61,899 bases of DNA from a bacterium. Lineage in GTDB: Bacteria; Patescibacteriota; Patescibacteriia; Patescibacteriales; XYC2-FULL-47-12. Location: assembly GCA_030698385.1 (NCBI GenBank), contig JAUYLZ010000027.1, positions 1 to 61,899 of the forward strand. The letters are read 5' to 3'. The notes beneath the pieces were generated by a model. That model did no database searches, was not told where the DNA came from, and saw only the letters and a list, made by a program, of their open reading frames with translations. The position numbers were made by a program, and so were the translations under genes. Position 1 is the stretch's first letter. Every line of letters begins with the position of its first letter. Of the stretch, positions 1,552 through 61,022 are shown in pieces.

Positions 1552-3600
1552 ATGAATCAATTAATCACGACATTTTTAAGAAAAAAGTCGCTGTTATGTT
1601 TAATGGCGACTCTCATTGTATTTACGCCAATTTCCGCTCAGGCGCTGCAGCCAAATGATACGGCTTATTCACAGCAGTGGTATCTGCAAAAAATTGGCGC
1701 TCAGCAGGCATGGGATATTGAGTATAACAGTTCGCAGGTAATAATCGCGGTTATCGACACCGGTGTTGATATTAATCATCCTGATTTGCGCGATAACATC
1801 TGGATAAACAAAGATGAGATTCCTGACAATGGCATTGACGATGATAAAAACGGGTATATTGACGATTTGAACGGCTGGGATTTTTATCATAATGTCGCTG
1901 ATCCGCGCCCGAAGTTTGAAGACGGATTTACCGATATTGGAATTAATCATGGCACGATTGTGGCCGGTATTATCGCCGCGGTCGGCAATAATTCGTTCGC
2001 GCTCAGCGGCGTGAATTGGCAAGCCCAGATAATGCCGTTAAAAACGCTTAATGACAGCGGTCAAGGCAAGGTAACGGATGTCATCAAGAGCATAGACTAC
2101 GCGATAGATAATGGAGCGCGGATTATTAATTTGAGCTTCGTTGGCACGCAGTACTCTGATAGTTTGGCCGAAGCGATCGGCCGCGCGCATCAAGCCGGTA
2201 TCATAGTTGTCGCGGCAGCCGGCAATGAAAATGAACAAGGCCTGGGTCATAGTCTGGACAAAGATCCGATGTATCCGGTTTGCATGGATGGCGGCAGTAA
2301 TATGATTATTGGCGTTGCCGCCACTGATGATCTTGATCAAAAAGCCGTTTTTTCTAATTATGGAAGCAGTTGTATTGATATTGCGGCGCCCGGCATCAGC
2401 ATTATCGGGCTATCTGCTTATGATCCGCAGCGTGAGTTTTTGGGAGAGAAGTTTGATAAATATTATCAGGGGTACTGGTCCGGCACATCAATGTCAGCGC
2501 CGCTGGTATCGGGCAGTTTTGCCTTATTGAAGTCGATTAACCCTAAGTTGAAACGCAGTGAAATAATTAACATTCTTTTGAGCAGTAGTGATAATATTAA
2601 TAGAATTAATCCGCAGTACGCTAATCTGCTCGGTGCGGGAAGGCTGAATTTAAAAAACGCGGCGCAAATAGTTCATCAGCAGTTAACTAGTTTTAATAAT
2701 TATATAGTTACTGCTCCGCAAGGCAAATTTGTTCCAATGGTAAAGTTGTTTTCAGATGGGAGCGCCAAAAATGAATTTAACGCTTATGGTGAAAATTTTT
2801 TTGGCGGAGCCGCGGTTGCCACCGGCGATATTGACGGTGACGGGGTTGACGAAATCATCACCGGCGCCGGCAACGGCGGCGGCCCGCACGTGCGTATCTT
2901 TAATAATCGCGGCGAGCTGAAGGGACAGTTCTTTGCCTACAGTGAAAATTTCCGCGGCGGCGTGAATATAACGACTGGCGATATTGACGGTGACGGGGTT
3001 GACGAAATCATCACCGGCGCCGGCAACGGCGGCGGCCCGCACGTGCGTATCTTTAATAATCGCGGCGAGCTGAAGGGACAGTTCTTTGCCTACAATTCAG
3101 ACCTGCGCAACGGCGTTAGCGCGGCTGCCGGCGATATTGACGGTGACGGGGTTGACGAAATCATCACCGGCGCCGGCAGCGGTACTAAGCCGGAAGTCAG
3201 AGTTTTTGGCGCTGACCTGAAGCTAAAAAAATCTTTTTTCGCGTATAATGAAAATTTCCGCGGCGGCGTGAATATAGCCGCCGGCGACGTGGATGGAAAC
3301 GGCATTGATGACATTATTACGGGCGCAAAATTCGGCGGCGGCCCGCACGTGCGCGTATTCAATCACAATGGTTCAGTTAGGTCGCAATTTTTTGCCTATG
3401 ACGCGGACTTCCGCGGCGGCGTCAATATTGGCATCGGTGATATGGATAATAACGGGGTTGACGAAATCATCACCGGCGCCGGTGTCGGCGGCGGCCCGCA
3501 CGTGCGCGTATTCAATGACCAAGGCAAGCTCTTGAACGGATTCTACGCATATGATACGGTTATGAATGGGGGGGTAAGTGTCAGCGCAATTAAACTATAA
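1552..3600 (+). CDS. Secreted subtilisin-like serine peptidase (S8) fused to FG-GAP/VCBS-like repeats
   Basis: 682-aa ORF with a signal peptide. Subtilase triad motifs are present: VIDTGVD (Asp), NHGTIVAG (His) and GTSMSAP (Ser). The C-terminal half holds about 5.5 repeats of 51 aa (GDIDGDGVDEIITGAG-GGGPHVR-F). Confidence 0.85.
   Translation: MNQLITTFLRKKSLLCLMATLIVFTPISAQALQPNDTAYSQQWYLQKIGAQQAWDIEYNSSQVIIAVIDTGVDINHPDLRDNIWINKDEIPDNGIDDDKNGYIDDLNGWDFYHNVADPRPKFEDGFTDIGINHGTIVAGIIAAVGNNSFALSGVNWQAQIMPLKTLNDSGQGKVTDVIKSIDYAIDNGARIINLSFVGTQYSDSLAEAIGRAHQAGIIVVAAAGNENEQGLGHSLDKDPMYPVCMDGGSNMIIGVAATDDLDQKAVFSNYGSSCIDIAAPGISIIGLSAYDPQREFLGEKFDKYYQGYWSGTSMSAPLVSGSFALLKSINPKLKRSEIINILLSSSDNINRINPQYANLLGAGRLNLKNAAQIVHQQLTSFNNYIVTAPQGKFVPMVKLFSDGSAKNEFNAYGENFFGGAAVATGDIDGDGVDEIITGAGNGGGPHVRIFNNRGELKGQFFAYSENFRGGVNITTGDIDGDGVDEIITGAGNGGGPHVRIFNNRGELKGQFFAYNSDLRNGVSAAAGDIDGDGVDEIITGAGSGTKPEVRVFGADLKLKKSFFAYNENFRGGVNIAAGDVDGNGIDDIITGAKFGGGPHVRVFNHNGSVRSQFFAYDADFRGGVNIGIGDMDNNGVDEIITGAGVGGGPHVRVFNDQGKLLNGFYAYDTVMNGGVSVSAIKL
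2824..3094. repeat. Perfect 118-bp tandem duplication (period 153 bp) inside the FG-GAP repeat region
   Basis: 2824-2941 is identical to 2977-3094. Weaker copies of the 153-bp unit continue to about 3590. Confidence 0.9.
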
Positions 3601-3633: not shown

Positions 3634-4659
3634 ATGCCAAATAGAGCAATATTTGACAAGAAAAATATATTGGTGGCGGGCGGCGCCGGTTTTTTAGGCT
3701 CGCATCTGTGCGATCGTTTGATCGAAAAAAACAAAGTCATCTGTATTGATAATTTCGTTACCGGTTCAGAGAGAAATATTGATCACCTTTTAGCAAATGA
3801 GAATTTCGTTTTTATCAAAGCGGATATTAATGATTTGCCGGATTTGGAAAAAATGCCCGAACTGCAAAAATTCAAAATTCAGTTTCAGGGAATACAGCAG
3901 ATTTATAACTGCGCCTGTCCGTCTTCGCCGGCTAATTTTGACGAAAACAAGATTTTAACTCTGCATGCCAATTCTATCGGCGTAAAGAACTTGCTTGATC
4001 TGGCTATTCGTTACCAGCCGGTTTTTCTGCACTGCTCTTCTTCCGTTGTCTATGGTCCGCGCCGTGAGAATAATCAAAAGATAAAAGAAGACGACTTCGG
4101 CGTAGTTAATCCGGTTGGCGAGCGTTCGGCTTATGATGAAGGCAAGCGTTTTGCCGAGAGTATGGTAATCAATTACCGTGATGTGTACTCGCTTGATGTT
4201 CGCATCGCCCGCATTTTCCGCACCTTTGGTCCGCGCATGCCGCTGAATGACAAGCAAATGATCCCTGATTTTATTTTTAGCGCGCTAGAAAACAAAGACT
4301 TGGTGATTTACGGCAATCAGGATTTTCACTCAAGTTTTTGCTATGTCAGCGATGTTGTTGACGGCATTATGAAATTGGTTGAGACAGACTATCAAGATCC
4401 GGTTAATATCGGCAGTGACGTGGACGAACTATTAGCCGGCGTTGCTGAAAAAATTATCAAGCTCACTGACTCAAAGTCAAAGATAGTTTACAAAGATCCG
4501 ATTCTTTTCATGACTCCGTTGAGCGTTCCCGACATCACTTTGATCAAAGAAAAATTCGGCTGGCTGCCAATTACCACTTTAGCCAAGGGTCTGGAGCGCA
4601 CAGTTGAAGATTTGCGCGCCAGCAAAGGACTGCTCGGCGTTGAACACGCAATAGATTAG
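3634..4659 (+). CDS. UDP-glucuronate decarboxylase-like extended SDR (NAD-dependent epimerase/dehydratase)
   Basis: 341-aa ORF with the GGAGFLGSHL Rossmann motif and a YDEGKR (YxxxK) active site. The overall pattern matches UXS-type enzymes. Confidence 0.8.
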   Translation: MPNRAIFDKKNILVAGGAGFLGSHLCDRLIEKNKVICIDNFVTGSERNIDHLLANENFVFIKADINDLPDLEKMPELQKFKIQFQGIQQIYNCACPSSPANFDENKILTLHANSIGVKNLLDLAIRYQPVFLHCSSSVVYGPRRENNQKIKEDDFGVVNPVGERSAYDEGKRFAESMVINYRDVYSLDVRIARIFRTFGPRMPLNDKQMIPDFIFSALENKDLVIYGNQDFHSSFCYVSDVVDGIMKLVETDYQDPVNIGSDVDELLAGVAEKIIKLTDSKSKIVYKDPILFMTPLSVPDITLIKEKFGWLPITTLAKGLERTVEDLRASKGLLGVEHAID

Positions 4660-5095: not shown

Positions 5096-5190
5096 ATTAA
5101 AAAGAAATATAGAAGCAAAAAAAGCCCTCTAAAGCTAAGGACGGCTTTTGGATTGTCTGTTATGGTAATAAATTTTTTTTGTCAAATAAA

Positions 5191-5228
5191 AAACCCGAGG
5201 TATTTTTCACTCGGGTTTGATTTTTTTC
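5191..5228. terminator. Bidirectional rho-independent terminator
   Basis: Hairpin AAACCCGAG-N10-CTCGGGTTT flanked by an A-run and a T-run, between convergent hpf and the 96-aa gene. Confidence 0.65.
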
Positions 5229-5233
5229 TAAGG

Positions 5234-5524
5234 CTAGGAAGTTTTTTTTGTATCAGGTAATTTTTTGATTATTTTTTTCCACGGAATTTTAAAAGGTCTG
5301 ATTTGGCCTTTGCCTTGTTGGTTAAAAATCCGAAAATTAACATTCAGCGATATTTTGCTTTTATTTAAATAGGTTATGAATGCAGAATTGCATTTCCAGA
5401 GTTGTTTTTTGCCTTCCGCAGTATTAATACCATCGGAAAAATCCTCGGCATTTAAGTTTTCAGAAAGAACTCTGTTTGTGTGCGCGTCTTTCGGTTCTAT
5501 AAACCAAGTATATTCTGTAGACAT
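5234..5524 (-). CDS. Hypothetical protein (orphan), second gene of a two-gene operon
   Basis: 96-aa ORF with the SD-like AGGAAAGGAAG 5 nt upstream of ATG. No recognisable motif. Confidence 0.5.
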   Translation of the reverse strand: MSTEYTWFIEPKDAHTNRVLSENLNAEDFSDGINTAEGKKQLWKCNSAFITYLNKSKISLNVNFRIFNQQGKGQIRPFKIPWKKIIKKLPDTKKTS

Positions 5525-5542
5525 ATCAACTTCCTTTCCTAA

Positions 5543-5920
5543 TTAGTTTTTATTCAGATTCTTTATTCTTTGATTATTCAAAACTATTTTTCCACATTCA
5601 TCTTCTTTAAAAATAATAAAATGCAAGTGTTTAATGCTTCGCAGACGGTACAAATCGCTGATGTATCTGGGACTAATTTCATATAGTGTGGCGTACCAAT
5701 CGGAAAAAATTACGTCTTGGTGAATTTTGTGGGGGAGTTCTTGCAGTTCTTTTTCGGTTTGATCGTCTAGCGGTTTTACAAAAAATTTTTCGCCTTTCTT
5801 TTTTGGCGAATAGCCAAGCTCTGCTCTTGAATTTTCTTTGCCAAAAAGATTGGCATATTCATCATCTATGGGCACTTCTAAGTCTCTAAAACTTATCTCC
5901 TGTTCGTGCATTTTTTTCAT
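5543..5920 (-). CDS. Hypothetical protein (orphan), first gene of a two-gene operon
   Basis: 125-aa ORF with SD GAGGTG 6 nt upstream of ATG. Lies downstream of the palindrome-TTGACA promoter. Confidence 0.5.
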   Translation of the reverse strand: MKKMHEQEISFRDLEVPIDDEYANLFGKENSRAELGYSPKKKGEKFFVKPLDDQTEKELQELPHKIHQDVIFSDWYATLYEISPRYISDLYRLRSIKHLHFIIFKEDECGKIVLNNQRIKNLNKN

Positions 5921-5989
5921 AATACACCTCGGTTTATTAAGTTTGTAAAGATCGTAATAAAGATCGTAATTACTTTTAAATATAGGTAT

Positions 5990-6034
5990 AATTTAGTATA
6001 ATTATCAATAAATGTCAATCCCGAGTACTCGGGA
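5990..6034 (-). promoter_or_regulatory. Promoter with abutting 16-bp palindromic operator
   Basis: Minus-strand reading: TCCCGAGTACTCGGGA (6034-6019) + TTGACA (6018-6013) + 17 nt + TAAATT (5995-5990). Confidence 0.65.
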
Positions 6035-6091
6035 CTATTGCTAAAATAGCTTAAATTTGTTACGATAAATCTGCTTATACTTAAAGAAATT

Positions 6092-9840: not shown

Positions 9841-10281
9841 ATGATCTTATCTCATGCTGACTTTATGGATTTTATACGTAGGAGTTCTAACATAGTCGGT
9901 TATCTCGGTTTAAGTATGCCGTCTAAAGGCGTTGAATTGGAGCCTGATACTCCTGTAAATTTATCTGAGGTTGGATTGATAATAGAAGGCGATTCAGAAA
10001 TACACTTGGCTCAGGAAGTAGTTAAGCTTTCTATAGAGAGAGGTAAGTGGGCTCCTAAACAGCACAAGATAAAAGTGAGTACGCGCCGAAAAAAAGCCAG
10101 TGACTCTAAAAAGTTTGTTACAGTTATTGGAATTAATGATTTGTTTGATCTGATGAAAATTGACTTTAGTCGGGTTATTTTGGTAGAACCGATGTATTTT
10201 CAGTGGCCGATGACATTAGATGATATGATTGCGAAAGGAGACTGGGAGGATATTTATGATCTTGGTTTGCAGGCCGCTTAA
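9841..10281 (+). CDS. Hypothetical protein (orphan)
   Basis: Start moved to the ATG at 9841, which has a GGAGG box 5 nt upstream. 146 aa, no recognisable motif. Terminator at 10292-10322. Confidence 0.5.
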   Translation: MILSHADFMDFIRRSSNIVGYLGLSMPSKGVELEPDTPVNLSEVGLIIEGDSEIHLAQEVVKLSIERGKWAPKQHKIKVSTRRKKASDSKKFVTVIGINDLFDLMKIDFSRVILVEPMYFQWPMTLDDMIAKGDWEDIYDLGLQAA

Positions 10282-17803: not shown

Positions 17804-18042
17804 ATAATTCGCGTAGCGCGTAACGCAAAGCGCGTAACGTACTATTCATTTAAGTGGTCGCTATGCGTTAGGCGGCGCCTTACTTTATTAGTATGATTTT
17901 TGGGTATTGTTAAGGTTATAAAAACAAAAACCACCCGTAGATTACCGAGCGGTTTTAGCTTAGCATTAAACTTAGGGTTTGGTCAAAATTGCATATTTTC
18001 AAATCTTTGACAACTAATAAAAAGAATGTTAGTACATAATGT

Positions 18043-18078
18043 AAAAACCGTTCCGAGTGCTCGGGACGGTCTTTTTTT
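18043..18078. terminator. Bidirectional rho-independent terminator
   Basis: ACCGTTCCGAG-tg-CTCGGGACGGT flanked by A5 and T7. Confidence 0.6.
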
Positions 18079-18201
18079 ACGCAAAATAAATTAAATTAAT
18101 CTTTTCAGTTTTTTTCGGCAACGGTTTCAGCTTCATTTTGATCCTGACTCAAAATCTCCTTATTTTTTTATCAAACCTAAAACATAGACAATTTCTTCCG
18201 C

Positions 18202-20780: not shown

Positions 20781-20785
20781 ATATT

Positions 20786-20814
20786 AATTTCAGATTGCAG
20801 ATTTCAAATTGCAA
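20786..20814 (-). promoter_or_regulatory. Promoter positioned for a leaderless mRNA (TTGCAAT-TGAAAT motif)
   Basis: Minus-strand reading: TTGCAA + 17 nt + GAAATT + 5 nt + ATG (20780). Shares TGCAATCTGAAAT with the sites at 36439 and 60988. Confidence 0.45.
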
Positions 20815-20848
20815 ATTTGCATTCTGAAATTTACATTTTGTATTTAAA

Positions 20849-36150: not shown

Positions 36151-36432
36151 CTATTTATTGGTCAGTACGCTCACGATTGTTGTTTCTTTGAGAGCGCCGT
36201 TGAATTTTTTCAGCTTCTTTTTGGTAAATTTGACGAAGCCGTTAATAAGCGAGAATAAAGTGTCATCTTTGCCGCGTTTGACATTTTTGCCGGCGTGCCA
36301 TTTGGTGCCGCGCTGGCGGATGAGAATGGAGCCGATTTTGGCGCGTTCGCCGTCATGGAGCTTAACGCCCAAACGTTGCGCTTGTGAATCGCGGCCTAAC
36401 GCTGTGGAGCCGCCTGCTTTTTTATGTGCCAT
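36151..36432 (-). CDS. rpmA: 50S ribosomal protein L27
   Basis: 93-aa [37 protein letters not shown] is the L27 signature. Confidence 0.95.
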
Positions 36433-36438
36433 ATTTTT

Positions 36439-36467
36439 GATTTCAAATTTAAGATTTCAGATTGCAA
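36439..36467 (-). promoter_or_regulatory. Promoter positioned for a leaderless rpmA mRNA (TTGCAATCTGAAAT motif)
   Basis: Minus-strand reading: TTGCAA + 17 nt + GAAATC + 6 nt + ATG (36432). Confidence 0.4.
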
Positions 36468-36559
36468 ATTTATAATTTAAAAATTGTTTGCAATCTATAA
36501 AGGTTATTGCTATTCTATCAGTAATTGATTTTTATGTCAATATATGATAGGATTATGAC

Positions 36560-53953: not shown

Positions 53954-55185
53954 ACCCTACAAACATCTCAACTATTGCCCGGGTCATAATTGACGTGACG
54001 CGTCGATGTAATTTGAGTTGCTGGTATTGTCATTCCACATCCGGTCCTGAATATCGAGGTCCGGAAATTGATGTTACCCGCATTCCCAACATTTTTGATA
54101 CTGCGGAACAGCTCAAGGTATTTGAAATAACCATCACTGGCGGTGAACCAATTTTGTGGAGAGGGTTACCATTGCTGATGGAAAACTCTCATCGTCTTGA
54201 GTTTACGAAGTTGCAAATCATCACGAACGCAACCTTGATATCGACGGAGATCGTCAAAATCCTACGACGAGCGAATTTGAGTAGGATTTGCGTAAGTTTA
54301 GACGGGGTCGAGCACTTACATGCGAAAAATAGGGGAAAGGGCATGTATGAACAGACGATCGCCGGTATTCAACGGTTACGTGAAGTCGTTGATAACATTA
54401 CGGTTATCTCAGTATTGGACAATTTGAATTGTTCATACTGGTCGGAACTAACCGAAGTGTTGATTAAGGCAGGGGTTAAACAACACCACTTAGCGCCGGT
54501 GTGTTTTTCCGGCAATGCCATGGAACGGTATCGAGGACTTAGCCAACAGCAATTCGCTGAAGTACGCGAGCAAGTTGAAGCCATCTCAAGATCATTGCCC
54601 GATGGGTACTTAGTGGCGTTTAATGATTCCCTCGTAAATGGTCTCCGGTCCCGTTATATGACGTTACAGATATTCACTGAACAGTTTAAAGGTTGGCATA
54701 TCGTTATCCGACCCACTGGTCAGGTGAATACATCTGTCAATGGATGGGGCCGAAGCTGGAGAGCAGTAGCAATGATCGGCGACATAAACCAAGCGCCACT
54801 TTCGCAACTAATACAAGGGTATAGCGCCACGATCAACGAAGCGTTGCGAACCCAATTCTCACACTCAGAGGAAATTCGTCGCAAGTTTCATGTTTCTGCT
54901 ACTCAGGAAGATGTTCTGAGTGATATTACTGATGTTCGGTGCACTGAAACGGGATTCGGTACCGATACTTGTGATGCCCAAATTTCTCGTCAGGCGGATG
55001 AAATAGTGCTGCCAGCGGCTTTGGGCATTAATCTCGACGATCTGAAAATACTTATAGCGGCCAACCCCGACCGTTACAGGTTGCGACGAGAGGATGGCTT
55101 TTGGCTACTCTTCGATACGACAACTTTCAACGTTTGCATTTTGAACAATCAAGAGATATTAGAGGTGAAAGGAGTAAATCCATGA
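53950..55185 (+). CDS. Radical SAM enzyme (unassigned subfamily)
   Basis: Start moved to the ATG that overlaps the upstream stop (ATGA). 411 aa with CNLSCWYC (CxxxCxxC) at residues 19-26 and the GGEP motif ITGGEPILW. No clear SPASM Cys cluster. Confidence 0.8.
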   Translation: MNPTNISTIARVIIDVTRRCNLSCWYCHSTSGPEYRGPEIDVTRIPNIFDTAEQLKVFEITITGGEPILWRGLPLLMENSHRLEFTKLQIITNATLISTEIVKILRRANLSRICVSLDGVEHLHAKNRGKGMYEQTIAGIQRLREVVDNITVISVLDNLNCSYWSELTEVLIKAGVKQHHLAPVCFSGNAMERYRGLSQQQFAEVREQVEAISRSLPDGYLVAFNDSLVNGLRSRYMTLQIFTEQFKGWHIVIRPTGQVNTSVNGWGRSWRAVAMIGDINQAPLSQLIQGYSATINEALRTQFSHSEEIRRKFHVSATQEDVLSDITDVRCTETGFGTDTCDAQISRQADEIVLPAALGINLDDLKILIAANPDRYRLRREDGFWLLFDTTTFNVCILNNQEILEVKGVNP

Positions 55186-56135
55186 AAGTGCTGGTTACGG
55201 GCGGGGTCGGTTTCGTCGGAGTGCATCTTTTGCCCTGGCTAGAACACGACTCTGCGATTGAAAGCGTTGTGATTCTGGATAGCCTGTGTTATACCTCAAT
55301 TCCCTCAGTCCTTCACGGATTGTCTGATAAATTCAAATTTATCAAAGGGGATATTTGCGAGGTTACACGCGTGGCTGATCTAGTATCAACCGTCGATGTA
55401 GTTATCAACCTTGCCGCCCAGACTTTTGTTGATAATGCTATCAACGATAGTCTGCCATTTGTCATGACTAATATTTTTGGATTGGCGTCAATCTTGGAGG
55501 CTATTCGTAAGGATAAGTGTCGGCAGCGGCTGGTTCACATCTCTACCGATGAAGTGTGGGGAGAAGCTTTGGTTGGGAGTTTTAATGAGGAATCTCCCTA
55601 TCATCCGCGCAACCCATATTCGGCGACAAAAGCAGCAGCCGACCACATGATTAGGGCTTATGGATCGACGTATGGTCTCCGGTATAACATCATTCACTTC
55701 CCCAATTTGTATGGGAGATGGCAGTATCCAGAAAAACTCATTCCGGCTACGATTGCTCGGTTGTCGCGCGACGAAAAAGCGCGCATCTACGGCGATGGTC
55801 AGCAAACCCGTACCTGGTTGCACGTCAATGATGCGGTGGACGGATTGTTGCGAGTTTTCCATCACGCGACAATGAGAACCTACACGCTCGGTACGGATGA
55901 TGTGTGGACGAATCTTGATGTAGTTAAACTCATCTGCCGTTTGATGGGAAAAGATGAAACCTCAATTGAATTCGTCGAAGATAGGTTGGGCCATGATCGC
56001 CACTACGTGGTTGATTGTAGTCGGATTTGCCAAGAGCTCAATTGGCGACCGACAATCAAGTTTGAAGTCGGCGTTGCTGATATCATTGCTTGGTTTAAGG
56101 CGCACCAAAGATGGTGGGAGACGGCCCATCAATGA
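55182..56135 (+). CDS. rfbB: NDP-hexose (dTDP-glucose-type) 4,6-dehydratase
   Basis: Start moved to MKVLVTGG, overlapping the upstream stop (ATGA). 317 aa with TGGVGFVG, STDEVWG and YSATKAAADH (YxxxK). Confidence 0.85.
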   Translation: MKVLVTGGVGFVGVHLLPWLEHDSAIESVVILDSLCYTSIPSVLHGLSDKFKFIKGDICEVTRVADLVSTVDVVINLAAQTFVDNAINDSLPFVMTNIFGLASILEAIRKDKCRQRLVHISTDEVWGEALVGSFNEESPYHPRNPYSATKAAADHMIRAYGSTYGLRYNIIHFPNLYGRWQYPEKLIPATIARLSRDEKARIYGDGQQTRTWLHVNDAVDGLLRVFHHATMRTYTLGTDDVWTNLDVVKLICRLMGKDETSIEFVEDRLGHDRHYVVDCSRICQELNWRPTIKFEVGVADIIAWFKAHQRWWETAHQ

Positions 56136-58860: not shown

Positions 58861-59142
58861 ATGGCAAAAATGACAAAGGGCCAATTGTTTCAATCATTGG
58901 CTGAATCAACCGGAATGAGTAAAAAGGAGGTTGGAAATTTTCTTGACCAGCTAACCAGTTTGGCTTACAAAGAAGTCAAGAGCAGTGGCGAGTTCGTCTT
59001 GCCAGGCATGGGCAAATTAGTAAAAGTTGACCGTAAGGCTCGCATGGGCCGCAATCCCGCCACTGGCGAGGAGATAAAGATTCCGGCTAAAACAGTGGTA
59101 AAATTCCGTGTTGCCAAAGCCGCTAAGGATGCAGTACTCTAA
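58861..59142 (+). CDS. hup: DNA-binding protein HU
   Basis: 93-aa ORF with the HU/IHF signature (GFG.F....R.AR.GRNP.TGE.I.I). Confidence 0.92.
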   Translation: MAKMTKGQLFQSLAESTGMSKKEVGNFLDQLTSLAYKEVKSSGEFVLPGMGKLVKVDRKARMGRNPATGEEIKIPAKTVVKFRVAKAAKDAVL

Positions 59143-59260
59143 GTATTCTTGATAGGTTTATTGCCAATAAAAAAGAACCGCCATAGCGATACGGCGGTTT
59201 TTTTATTCCTCGTATAAGTATAAAGATCTAATTTTAGGGTAGTTTAGGGGTGTTTTATTA

Positions 59261-59315
59261 TCCCGAGTACTCCCGAGTACTCGGTATTGACAAATTTAAA
59301 AAATTAATGTATAAT
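59261..59315 (+). promoter_or_regulatory. Consensus promoter with abutting palindromic operator and a duplicated half-site
   Basis: TCCCGAGTAC x2, then palindrome TCCCGAGTACTCGGTA (59271-59286) + TTGACA (59287-59292) + 17 nt + TATAAT (59310-59315). Confidence 0.7.
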
Positions 59316-59365
59316 AAATACGCACATTAACAATTTCATAGAATTCACAGAAAGCGAGAAAAATC

Positions 59366-60631
59366 ATGAAAAAATCTTTGTTTTTTGTTTTTATTGTTTT
59401 TATTGTAAATACAACGGTAGTGGCAAACACTACCATGAGTATTCACTTCTTTTCTGAGGGATTCAGAGAAGAATTAGAGTATCAATCTTTAATTAGCGAT
59501 GTAATAGCTGGTGCTACAGAATTCTTAAAGTCTGAACTAGACAGCTATCATCGTCGTTTCGCCTTTCTACCTCATTTTATTGCCAGTCGAGATTCCGGTA
59601 TCAGCTGGCCGGATGTAAAAAATGAAACGGCGCTTGGTGTTGCTGTTACCAAGCAAAGCTGGCCTTATCCGGCATTTCAGGATAAGAACAAGCTGGAGTA
59701 TATGAAACAGCTTGCCGGTCAAGTCTCTAGCAGTATCACGGATAACGATTTTTTCGTTGTTGTACTAAATGACGAAAATGTCAGTGAATGTCGGAGTAAT
59801 GGTGTTGTCTTTTTAAGACGATCTCATCCGGCTAACATGGTGTTTCAGCTGATTCATGAGTTGGGACATCAAATCGCCGAACTCGCCGATGCCTATCGGG
59901 CATTCGGTCCGGTCGGCGCCGGCATTAATGCCATGCTCGCTATTAATATTGCAGGCAGGGAACAGGTGGGCAATTTACCTTGGCAAGCTCTCATACCTGA
60001 AAATGTCCCCGTTCCCACAAGTAATATCCCGTATTTTTACGGAGAAGATCAGGAATATATGTTTTTTATTCCTGAAGAGAGTTACTTGGAAGAGGTAGGG
60101 GCATTCACCGAAAACGGAAACTTAATTATTCCGTCGCCGTTCAGTATAATGGCAGTACGGGACTATGGCCTTGTGCTGAATGCCACCGGTGAAGTGGTTG
60201 TAACTGGTGGTAACCCACTACAGTTTAACGCGGTGGAGAAACACGCTTGGCTGATTCAGGCGCTGGCACGGACTAATTTTGTCCGCCGTCAGTACCAAAC
60301 TGAGACAACCGTTGGCCTTGATCTTCTACCCGCGCCCGACGGGTATGAAATTAAGTGGTTTTTTAACGGCCGATATATCTCTTGGATTGATGACAAAAGA
60401 GAAGTAAATATCCAGGATATTGCTTGGATATTAGAGATGAACGGCATTGACGCCGAACAGCCACTTCAGGTGGAGGCTGTCATAGTTGATAAGTACGCCC
60501 AAGGTTATTTGGTATATAATCCATATAACCTAGAGTGGGCGAGCGAGCCGCATAAAGCGGCCTACTATGCTCTCTTTCGCGGGGAACCAGAACAATTCTA
60601 TCAAAAGGAATTGATCTGGGTTTTACAATAA
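59366..60631 (+). CDS. Secreted zinc metallopeptidase-like protein (M64-like HExxH...DAY)
   Basis: 421-aa ORF with a signal peptide. IHELGHQIAELADAY resembles the M64 HEFGH..LADEY motif. Confidence 0.55.
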   Translation: MKKSLFFVFIVFIVNTTVVANTTMSIHFFSEGFREELEYQSLISDVIAGATEFLKSELDSYHRRFAFLPHFIASRDSGISWPDVKNETALGVAVTKQSWPYPAFQDKNKLEYMKQLAGQVSSSITDNDFFVVVLNDENVSECRSNGVVFLRRSHPANMVFQLIHELGHQIAELADAYRAFGPVGAGINAMLAINIAGREQVGNLPWQALIPENVPVPTSNIPYFYGEDQEYMFFIPEESYLEEVGAFTENGNLIIPSPFSIMAVRDYGLVLNATGEVVVTGGNPLQFNAVEKHAWLIQALARTNFVRRQYQTETTVGLDLLPAPDGYEIKWFFNGRYISWIDDKREVNIQDIAWILEMNGIDAEQPLQVEAVIVDKYAQGYLVYNPYNLEWASEPHKAAYYALFRGEPEQFYQKELIWVLQ

Positions 60632-60690: not shown

Positions 60691-60710
60691 ATTAAAATAA
60701 CTATTTTAAG

Positions 60711-60719
60711 TTATCCACA
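60711..60719 (+). promoter_or_regulatory. Perfect DnaA box
   Basis: TTATCCACA. Confidence 0.5.
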
Positions 60720-60808
60720 TTAATTCTCCAAAAGCTTCGCATGGCGGCGGGCGAGATGAAGTATTGAGAAAATATAGTTAAAAATCAAGTATTTTTATAT
60801 AAATTAGC

Positions 60809-60817
60809 TGTGGATAA
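60809..60817 (-). promoter_or_regulatory. Perfect DnaA box (inverted)
   Basis: TGTGGATAA, 6 nt upstream of a TTGACA -35. Confidence 0.5.
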
Positions 60818-60823
60818 GTTATA

Positions 60824-60852
60824 TTGACAGGTGAACGATTGTACACTAAACT
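60824..60852 (+). promoter_or_regulatory. Promoter with an SOS-box-like dyad in the spacer
   Basis: TTGACA (60824-60829) + 17 nt + TAAACT. The spacer contains GAAC-GATT-GTAC (60833-60844), one mismatch from GAAC-N4-GTTC. Confidence 0.4.
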
Positions 60853-60987
60853 ATAAATATACTTTTTATTTCATTAAAAAAAGTGATGACGAGGAGGGAT
60901 GAGCGGCAACGTTCACATCACTTGCCCCGCTCCGACAAGAAAAAGTTCGGAGCGGGTTCCTCCCACAATTACTACTAAAGTTTAATT

Positions 60988-61016
60988 TTGCAATCTGAAA
61001 TTTAAAATTATAAATT
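60988..61016 (+). promoter_or_regulatory. Promoter positioned for a leaderless lexA mRNA (TTGCAATCTGAAAT motif)
   Basis: TTGCAA (60988-60993) + 17 nt + TAAATT (61011-61016) + 6 nt + ATG (61023). Confidence 0.5.
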
Positions 61017-61022
61017 ACCTTT

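Follow-up and report, generated by a model that had tools for sequence, protein, structure and literature searches.

A 16-bp palindrome, hereafter PAL, is fused to the -35 hexamer TTGACA at three sites, (a), (c) and (d), in contig JAUYLZ010000027.1 of a bacterium of the Patescibacteriota; the whole stretch analyzed, 61,899 nt in length, is referred to as the window. The shared sequence, TC(C/A)CGAGTACTCG(G/T)(G/T)A, stands directly 5' of TTGACA with zero spacing, and at all three sites a -10-like hexamer follows 17 nt further on, and then a co-oriented gene. PAL is promoter-associated, because this fusion is real and because most of its copies outside the Bacteroidales also precede a co-oriented gene. 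It looks unlike a site that evolved in place for a resident regulator and appears to behave as a repeat spread by copying and lateral transfer, given its near-invariance, its patchy distribution, its location on inserted or orphan DNA and its occurrence at non-promoter sites. Our tentative preference is for PAL as a copy-propagated palindromic module that serves as an operator abutting the -35 box, probably for a repressor.

Architecture of the promoter-fused palindrome

Chance is excluded as the source of the three-site pattern. Allowing up to three mismatches, we found six matches to the 16-mer in the window versus 0.12 expected, a count reached by none of 100 shuffles, and five matches to the core CGAGTACTCG versus 0.75 expected; the remaining near matches, at 18051 and 49488, are hairpins with T-runs (terminators) and not promoter sites. 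TTGACA adjoins the palindrome at 3/3 sites, each of which has a -10-like hexamer at exactly 17 nt, an arrangement with a background of 3 to 6% of positions. Among the 54 TTGACA hexamers of the window, seven have a -10-like hexamer at 17 nt, and three of those seven carry PAL. Furthermore, the identical 22-mer (PAL plus TTGACA) recurs in many other contigs, and its chance expectation, estimated from its length, is about 0.1 in 596 Gbp. A chance likeness of three AT-rich promoters, for which only the small sample of three sites speaks, is vanishingly improbable. Besides the 22-mer, the three cassettes have no common word of 13 nt or more and no larger repeat surrounds PAL; no general enrichment of CCCGAG/CTCGGG hexamers was found.

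Sites (a), (c) and (d) are predicted to be sigma-70-type promoters, as their -35 and -10 hexamers are close to consensus and their spacers are 17 nt long. The first ATG after the -10 hexamer lies about 70 nt downstream at (a), 50 nt at (d) and 184 nt at (c). An earlier reading of the window, made from the sequence only, had described three dyads abutting TTGACA without spacing, and all of its coordinates and sequences for them were reproduced; for (c) it had named no -10 hexamer, and the one assigned here is weak. We also confirmed its observation that (c) differs from (a) solely at mirror positions 3 and 14 (C>A and G>T), which turns a C-G pair into A-T and preserves the symmetry. Such a compensatory change is more typical of a paired structure, or of palindrome-correcting template switching, than of protein half-sites.

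Site (d) can be compared with a sister strain from sediment, sequenced in a different study (run X3), in which a contig covers positions 59078-59428. There the site is a single perfect PAL fused to TTGACA, with G at 59285 and without the 10-nt duplication that precedes PAL in the window. Because the sister-strain site is perfect, we take the perfect palindrome to be the older state, and the window's site (d) is, judging from the two sequences, a later version with a polymorphic slippage-type duplication. The sister-strain contig has 26 differences, most of them upstream of 59196 (the HU 3' end and a terminator); the promoter and the gene are nearly identical.

PAL hairpins are predicted to be stable, with DNA free energies of -5.5 to -8.5 kcal/mol and z-scores of -2.6 to -5.0, and the duplication at (d) also yields a longer hairpin. 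An intrinsic terminator was considered and rejected as the identity of PAL, since TTGACA and mixed sequence follow the palindrome without a T-run; true terminators are separate from PAL, upstream at (c) and (d), and the scan flags (a) marginally. PAL could also act as a coding-strand hairpin, either as an RNA 3'-end or insulator stem-loop against read-through or as a supercoil-driven cruciform that tunes the promoter. The stable folds, the compensatory pair 3/14 in (c), flanking base pairing that works only on the TTGACA strand (see below) and the position of (c) and of two loci from other organisms, L029 and L032, just after an upstream terminator would all fit such a role. However, PAL has no T-run of its own, no co-directional gene lies upstream of (a), a stem of 6 to 7 bp with a 4-nt center is short for cruciform extrusion, and the strict zero spacing to TTGACA would be left unexplained, which makes a hairpin function very improbable in our view.

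Copies in other organisms

Scans with TCNCGAGTACTCGNNATTGACA gave 7 loci in 596 Gbp of species genomes and 16 loci in metagenomes of the Joint Genome Institute (JGI). The scans were single-shot with 19 of 22 bases fixed, so that site variation is under-sampled; nearly all loci have the perfect form TCCCGAGTACTCGGGATTGACA, despite three free N positions. A fuzzy scan of every fetched locus, independent of the original pattern, added two perfect copies, L004:5238 and L007:5790 (PAL-TTGAAT), and one copy with a single mismatch, L004:248 (PAL-TTAGCC). The invariance of PAL is copy-like, and its distribution is sporadic and lateral. In viral contigs, the palindrome alone had 15 matches, approximately the level estimated for chance, none of them beside TTGACA, and the core plus TTGACA had none. 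A short-query search of the source-sample contigs for further PAL loci returned the same locus only. Two hits were set aside as chance, namely, a PAL-like sequence in a phage tRNA-Asp (L034; anticodon stem, variable loop and T stem) and a match inside a coding region (L036). A further locus, L037:81-480, has an odd context and could be a chimeric contig: a NikA-like relaxosome gene (ribbon-helix-helix) is followed 38 nt later by GGTTCAA-palindrome-TTGACA, with the palindrome extended by four pairs, then by about 270 nt of non-coding DNA and rplP.

Several copies stand in promoter-like settings. PAL-TTGACA-16-TATAAT lies 50 nt before recA (L033), PAL-TTGACA-16-TAGAAT precedes a rhuM-family gene at both L029 and L032, PAL-TTGACA-16-TATACT precedes a gene at L005, and PAL-TTGACA stands before an IS66 transposase gene at L027. 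The sequence-only reading had held that a dispersed repeat unrelated to promoters would overturn its proposal of a regulon. PAL is indeed in part a dispersed repeat, but the relation to genes holds: about 9 of 11 Patescibacteria-type copies are upstream of a co-oriented gene, as are most copies outside the Bacteroidales, although only about seven also have a correctly spaced -10-like hexamer. Three of the promoters, at L029 (250-330, minus strand), L032 (4440-4530) and L033 (3090-3190, minus strand), have a common module of about 60 nt that comprises a perfect DnaA box TTATCCACAGGCGG, PAL, TTGACA and either GTGATA repeats or a GTGATA..TATCAC dyad over the -10 hexamer. This module fronts different genes in different neighborhoods (recA once, rhuM-family genes twice) and is apparently mobile or heavily constrained. 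Putative mobile promoters and the outward -35 boxes at insertion-sequence ends similarly place identical promoter pieces before unrelated genes, with the -35 box supplied by the repeat, whereas PAL loci have only 22 bp in common and no insertion-sequence body or inverted-repeat partner.

Other copies lie in fragments of tRNA-Val genes. At L008 and L030 (a Falkowbacteria metagenome-assembled genome [MAG]; L008:7600-7665, minus strand), GGGCATATAGCTCAGTTGGTTAGAG-PAL-TTGACATCGTA is found 8 nt upstream of an intact tRNA-Val(GAC), and at L024 (1155-1260, minus strand) a junction of the same type runs into a complete tRNA 3' half. At L004:5238 (5190-5290, minus strand), GGACGCTTAGCTCAGTTGGTTAGAA-PAL-TTTACAC precedes, by 40 nt, an intact tRNA-Val(TAC) whose 5' half is the same. 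In these fragments PAL takes the place of the anticodon stem's 5' strand, and its last base borders directly on the anticodon loop (TTGACAT or TTTACAC). The fragments sit just upstream of an intact tRNA for Val(GAC), Val(TAC) or Ile and have no workable promoter geometry; the link to them may reveal how PAL spreads.

In the Bacteroidales (loci L002, L003, L006, L025, L026, L028, L031, L035, L038 and L039), PAL forms the tip of a long hairpin within a structured intergenic repeat of about 110 nt. Maps, an alignment and a consensus fold of L002, L003, L006 and L026 show arrays in which open reading frames (ORFs) alternate with imperfect inverted repeats that have AAC...GTT ends. The repeat follows toxin-antitoxin genes, and an IS110 transposase adjoins one copy; in a variant (L006:1232 and L006:3829), PAL is shifted inside the repeat and lacks TTGACA. 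Judged from its structure and the ORF layout, the repeat looks like an attC site, since integron attC sites are likewise structured repeats after each ORF with such ends. The resemblance applies to the Bacteroidales copies only; around the Patescibacteria copies, the attC flanks are absent altogether. Rfam has no matching family at this repeat, at PAL or in the leader of (c).

These settings bear on the possibility that PAL plus TTGACA is part of a site-specific recombination site (att- or attC-like) that bounds small cassettes, with TTGACA(T) as a crossover core shared with the tRNA-Val anticodon loop. Every window copy lies at the 5' edge of an accessory block, of which block (a) is clearly inserted between hpf and secA, and the sister-strain differences cluster upstream of about 59196, leaving the promoter and gene of (d) nearly identical. 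Neighborhoods of intact tRNA genes are a classic integration hot spot, and the attC-like arrays with their adjoining transposase would also be accommodated. Against this, PAL is found at one block end only, with no second site or other common sequence, and no integrase lies beside any window copy. Moreover, arms of 7 bp around a 2-bp center are atypical for the cores of tyrosine or serine recombinases, and the tRNA fragments lack the 5' anticodon stem, which integration at an anticodon loop should have left in place. We regard a recombination site as improbable.

The flanks of PAL are conserved over a very short distance. Among 15 independent copies, position -1 is a purine in 15/15 (9 G and 6 A) and positions +1/+2 are TT in 15/15, and the sequence farther to the left is unconserved; the right flank is TTGACA in 12/15 and TTTACA, TTGAAT or TTAGCC in the others. 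Positions -1 and +1 always form A-T or G.T, a pairing that works only on the TTGACA-bearing strand, and the resulting conserved oligonucleotide at the foot of the hairpin differs from the GTAG of known repetitive extragenic palindromes (REPs). Two copies in the MAG CAZDHE01 (L004:3010 and L007:4164) belong to a 56-nt repeat, TTGACATTTG-PAL-TTGACATTTGTCATTTCAA..., in which a -10 hexamer is lacking, and one copy of this repeat is oriented into a convergent gene at its 3' end.

Such features could mark a REP-like or miniature mobile hairpin, moved as single-stranded DNA by an enzyme acting in trans (RAYT or IS200-type HUH, or another nuclease), that inserts directly on the 5' side of TTGACA-like hexamers (on the opposite strand, the 3' side of TGTCAA), for which -35 boxes and tRNA-Val anticodon loops would be natural targets. 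The -35 fusion would then reflect an insertion preference or a donated -35 box, and there would be no regulon. REPs and REPINs, mobilized by RAYT (IS200-like HUH) enzymes, are likewise short, multicopy, near-identical intergenic hairpin palindromes with a conserved flanking oligonucleotide that spread by copying. This proposal accounts for the invariance of copies over distant lineages with sharp boundaries, the R/TT rule and frequent TTGACA at the flanks, the lack of any spacing to TTGACA, the diversity of the genes that follow PAL and its placement, in tRNA-Val(GAC) as well as tRNA-Val(TAC) fragments, exactly where the anticodon loop begins on its 5' side. It would also fit the clustering of copies in CAZDHE01, the direct repeat TTGACATTTG that flanks PAL in L004 and L007, the sporadic distribution on inserted or orphan DNA, the duplication at (d) that is polymorphic between strains and the compensatory change in (c), which suits a hairpin or quasi-palindrome correction. 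On the other hand, Pfam finds no transposase or RAYT in the window, and at 16 bp PAL is far below any known autonomous or miniature element and would be unprecedentedly small. Most copies have no target-site duplication, no empty site was seen, and in the tRNA fragments PAL replaces 6 to 8 nt, so it is not a simple insertion. REPs, in addition, are imperfect palindromes of about 20 to 40 nt with a 5' GTAG, normally located 3' of genes, species-specific and not known to be promoter-fused, whereas PAL is mostly upstream of genes and fused to the -35 box. A mobile hairpin is the main rival of the operator reading and plausible but, we think, rather unlikely. Its most specific form, a minimal mobile palindrome that seeks -35 boxes, is copied by an enzyme in trans and takes tRNA-Val anticodon loops as off-targets, is doubtful; if true, it would rewire or tag the promoters of newly acquired genes in Patescibacteria and other uncultured lineages.

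A possible operator at the -35 box

In our preferred reading, PAL (consensus R-TCCCGAGTACTCGGGA-TT) would be a short module that spreads by copying and laterally and that, together with a consensus -35 box, acts as one unit at the three promoters, all strong and of the sigma-70 type, that drive strain-specific accessory genes. Its working form would most likely be duplex DNA under a homodimeric protein whose gene lies beyond the window, perhaps on the mobile DNA responsible for spreading PAL. Because the last base of PAL directly precedes the -35 hexamer, the center of the palindrome would lie near -43.5, where a bound dimer would contact, or block access to, sigma region 4 and the alpha C-terminal domain. 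With core promoters this close to consensus, repression is likelier than activation. What we infer from this arrangement is that a protein binds, in which direction it regulates and that the three gene sets are controlled together.

The reading as an operator draws on the shared layout of all three window copies, on the same 22-mer at the recA, rhuM-like, IS66 transposase and L005 promoters and on the perfect palindrome of the sister strain at (d). A perfect dyad of 16 bp would suit a helix-turn-helix dimer, for which this length is typical. There are precedents for invariant palindromes that serve as operators directly before the -35 box, as in the class I operators (OB) of KorB, and the 16-bp parS palindrome is conserved across phyla. 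The KorB operators of IncP plasmids offer a close parallel in layout: an invariant short palindrome stands right upstream of the -35 box of several promoters on laterally mobile DNA, and the dimeric repressor is encoded elsewhere. Repression at PAL is proposed to work in the same manner. They differ in that OB is TTTAGCSGCTAAA (13 bp) and occurs on one plasmid, whereas PAL is dispersed along a chromosome and among phyla; KorB belongs to the ParB family, of which the window has no gene. A parS/ParB centromere was rejected as the identity of PAL, as no match to TGTTTCACGTGAAACA was found at up to three mismatches and no ParB domain is present in the window.

Class II activator sites and lambda cI OR2 at PRM similarly have a dyad at about -42 to -44, at the -35 box and in contact with sigma region 4. 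Such promoters, however, have a poor -35 box and depend on the activator, whereas with the perfect TTGACA of the PAL sites repression, or independence from any activator, is more likely. The SlmA site GTGAGTACTCAC (TetR family) and PAL have the palindromic core GAGTACTC in common but differ in their outer bases, and SlmA sites are gammaproteobacterial and not known to be promoter-linked; no TetR-family gene lies in the window. None of the papers searched has the core sequence CCGAGTACTCGG.

A number of observations weigh against a conventional operator. Most copies are identical at 16/16 positions, including those found without constraint from the search pattern, and the degenerate variation expected of operators is not seen. 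PAL also occurs where no promoter is plausible, in the tRNA-Val fragments, the 56-nt repeat and the attC-like repeats of the Bacteroidales, and CAZDHE01 holds five copies in 14 kb. The mirror change in (c), together with the 15/15 rule at -1/+1 with G.T allowed, appears to fit a base-paired hairpin better than half-sites. Around secA in five relatives (290 kb, about 110 kb non-redundant), PAL is absent at up to three mismatches. Nor did Pfam identify a cognate regulator in the window, where the only recognizable DNA-binding proteins are HU (58861-59142) and a LexA-like protein (61023-61601), in agreement with the sequence-only reading, which had seen no candidate.

That reading had proposed one dimeric transcription factor co-regulating the three gene sets. 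The common architecture makes it possible and gives it partial support, but near-invariance, a strain-specific insertion, genes without homologues and the presence of the 22-mer in distant lineages do not sit well with an ordinary regulon. No regulator adjoins PAL at the loci from other organisms. As for orthologous promoters, the site is retained in one sister strain, in perfect form; the driven genes have no orthologues, and the motif is missing around secA in the relatives.

PAL may represent either a portable pair of regulator and operator through which newly acquired DNA is controlled or a new, very small repeat that targets or donates promoter elements. To our knowledge, transcriptional control in the Patescibacteria (candidate phyla radiation [CPR]) is almost unstudied, as these organisms have tiny genomes, few recognizable regulators and no cultured model. 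Either reading would aid the annotation of promoters and accessory islands in CPR metagenomes.

Genes behind PAL and other features of the window

The window comes from a groundwater metagenome and belongs near the Falkowbacteria. Its SecA is 70 to 72% identical to proteins of Patescibacteria, Candidatus Falkowbacteria among them, and its gene content is typical for the group, with type IV pilus genes, a SecD-PPIase fusion and few regulators. Coordinates of PAL, the promoters and the genes behind them are collected in Table 1.

Table 1. Positions of PAL copies, predicted promoter elements and associated genes (window coordinates unless a locus is named)
Feature	Position	Strand	Sequence or content	Basis or remark
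PAL copy (a)	6034-6019	minus	TCCCGAGTACTCGGGA	Perfect 16-bp palindrome
-35 box adjoining PAL (a)	6018-6013	minus	TTGACA	Sequence and promoter scan
-10-like hexamer of (a)	5995-5990	minus	TAAATT	17-nt spacer; promoter scan 10/12
ORF pair behind (a)	5234-5920	minus	125 aa and 96 aa	No Pfam or PHROG family
Possible weak divergent secA promoter	6038-6066	plus	TTGCTA-17-TACGAT	Putative; 3 nt beyond the other side of PAL (a)
Alternative secA promoter	5975-6002		TTTAAA-16-TATAAT	Putative; would put PAL (a) in the secA 5' leader
PAL copy (c)	51860-51875	plus	TCACGAGTACTCGTGA	
-35 box adjoining PAL (c)	51876-51881	plus	TTGACA	Sequence and promoter scan
Weak -10-like hexamer of (c)	51899-51904	plus	CATGAT	17-nt spacer, TG before it; promoter scan 10/12
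Cassette behind (c)	52088-56135	plus	79-aa ORF, S-adenosylmethionine (SAM) methyltransferase, nucleotidyltransferase, radical SAM enzyme, nucleoside diphosphate-sugar dehydratase/epimerase	
Extra left half-site at (d)	59261-59270	plus	TCCCGAGTAC	10-nt tandem duplication 5' of PAL (d)
PAL copy (d)	59271-59286	plus	TCCCGAGTACTCGGTA	
-35 box adjoining PAL (d)	59287-59292	plus	TTGACA	Sequence and promoter scan
-10 hexamer of (d)	59310-59315	plus	TATAAT	17-nt spacer; promoter scan 12/12
Secreted protein behind (d)	59366-60631	plus	421 aa	Sub-threshold M64 peptidase Pfam match
lexA-like gene promoter	60824-60852		TTGACA-GTGAACGATTGTACAC-TAAACT	Cheo-box-like imperfect palindrome between -35 and -10
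Bacteroidales repeat	L002:5455-5600; L003:2428-2573; L006:1150-1290, 3086-3231, 3750-3900; L026:1190-1300, 2070-2180; and others	minus (L003)	PAL-containing repeat	

The orphan ORF pair and PAL (a) form a strain-specific insertion between hpf and secA (5096-6091 in comparison with relatives): the two genes are adjacent in L042 (9867-10000), and only a small 57-aa ORF separates them in L040 (9590-10000). The 125-aa ORF has no homologue among 5.8 billion proteins. The pair was considered and rejected as an autoregulator, as neither families nor homologues were found and single-sequence AlphaFold models, with predicted local distance difference test (pLDDT) scores of 36 and 50, were uninformative.

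A leader of about 180 to 460 nt precedes the genes of the (c) cassette. The stretch from promoter (c) to the methyltransferase gene (51905-52364), which includes the 79-aa ORF without a family, could hold a regulatory RNA.

Behind (d), the label "M64-like" given by the sequence-only reading rests on a Pfam match below threshold (E = 1e-3; 18.8 bits versus a cutoff of 26). This protein has no homologue at E <= 1e-10, so two of the three PAL-driven gene sets are without homologues. Because both the M64-like protein and the 125-aa ORF lack homologues, footprinting through homologues of the driven genes is impossible.

LexA was considered as the PAL binder, given that recA in L033 carries PAL. It was rejected here because the promoter of the lexA-like gene has a different palindrome, GTGAACGATTGTACAC, as its operator. 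Perfect DnaA boxes at 60711-60719 and 60809-60817 flank this promoter (region 60700-61022).

Two side observations concern hairpins that resemble PAL. At 49488-49600 (minus strand) lies an uncalled tRNA-like element with a T-arm GGGGTTCAATACCCC, a 6-bp acceptor-like stem and a weak mascRNA-type Rfam match (E = 0.02); the arms of the terminator hairpin that follows it resemble PAL (TCCCGACGCCTCGGGA), and TTGACA-16-TACACT is found upstream at 49721 (minus strand). At 18007-18080, the hairpin ACCGTTCCGAGTGCTCGGGACGGT and a T-run come no more than about 15 nt after a promoter-like TTGACA-17/18-TAnnnT, and the hairpin arms are two mismatches from PAL; this could be a very short transcript or a bidirectional terminator.

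Intergenic 7-nt-periodic ATTKCAR runs (e.g., TTGCAAATTTGCAT) occur in the window at 20784-20846, 36423-36499 and 60977-61009 and in relatives at about 9950-9990 (L040) and 9910-9985 (L042). Related ATGCRAATTYGCAT palindromes stand before secA in relatives, and the runs may be a further regulatory motif. Finally, five tandem 153-nt repeats (66 to 100% identical) lie at 2821-3575 within a subtilase/FG-GAP gene (1552-3600).

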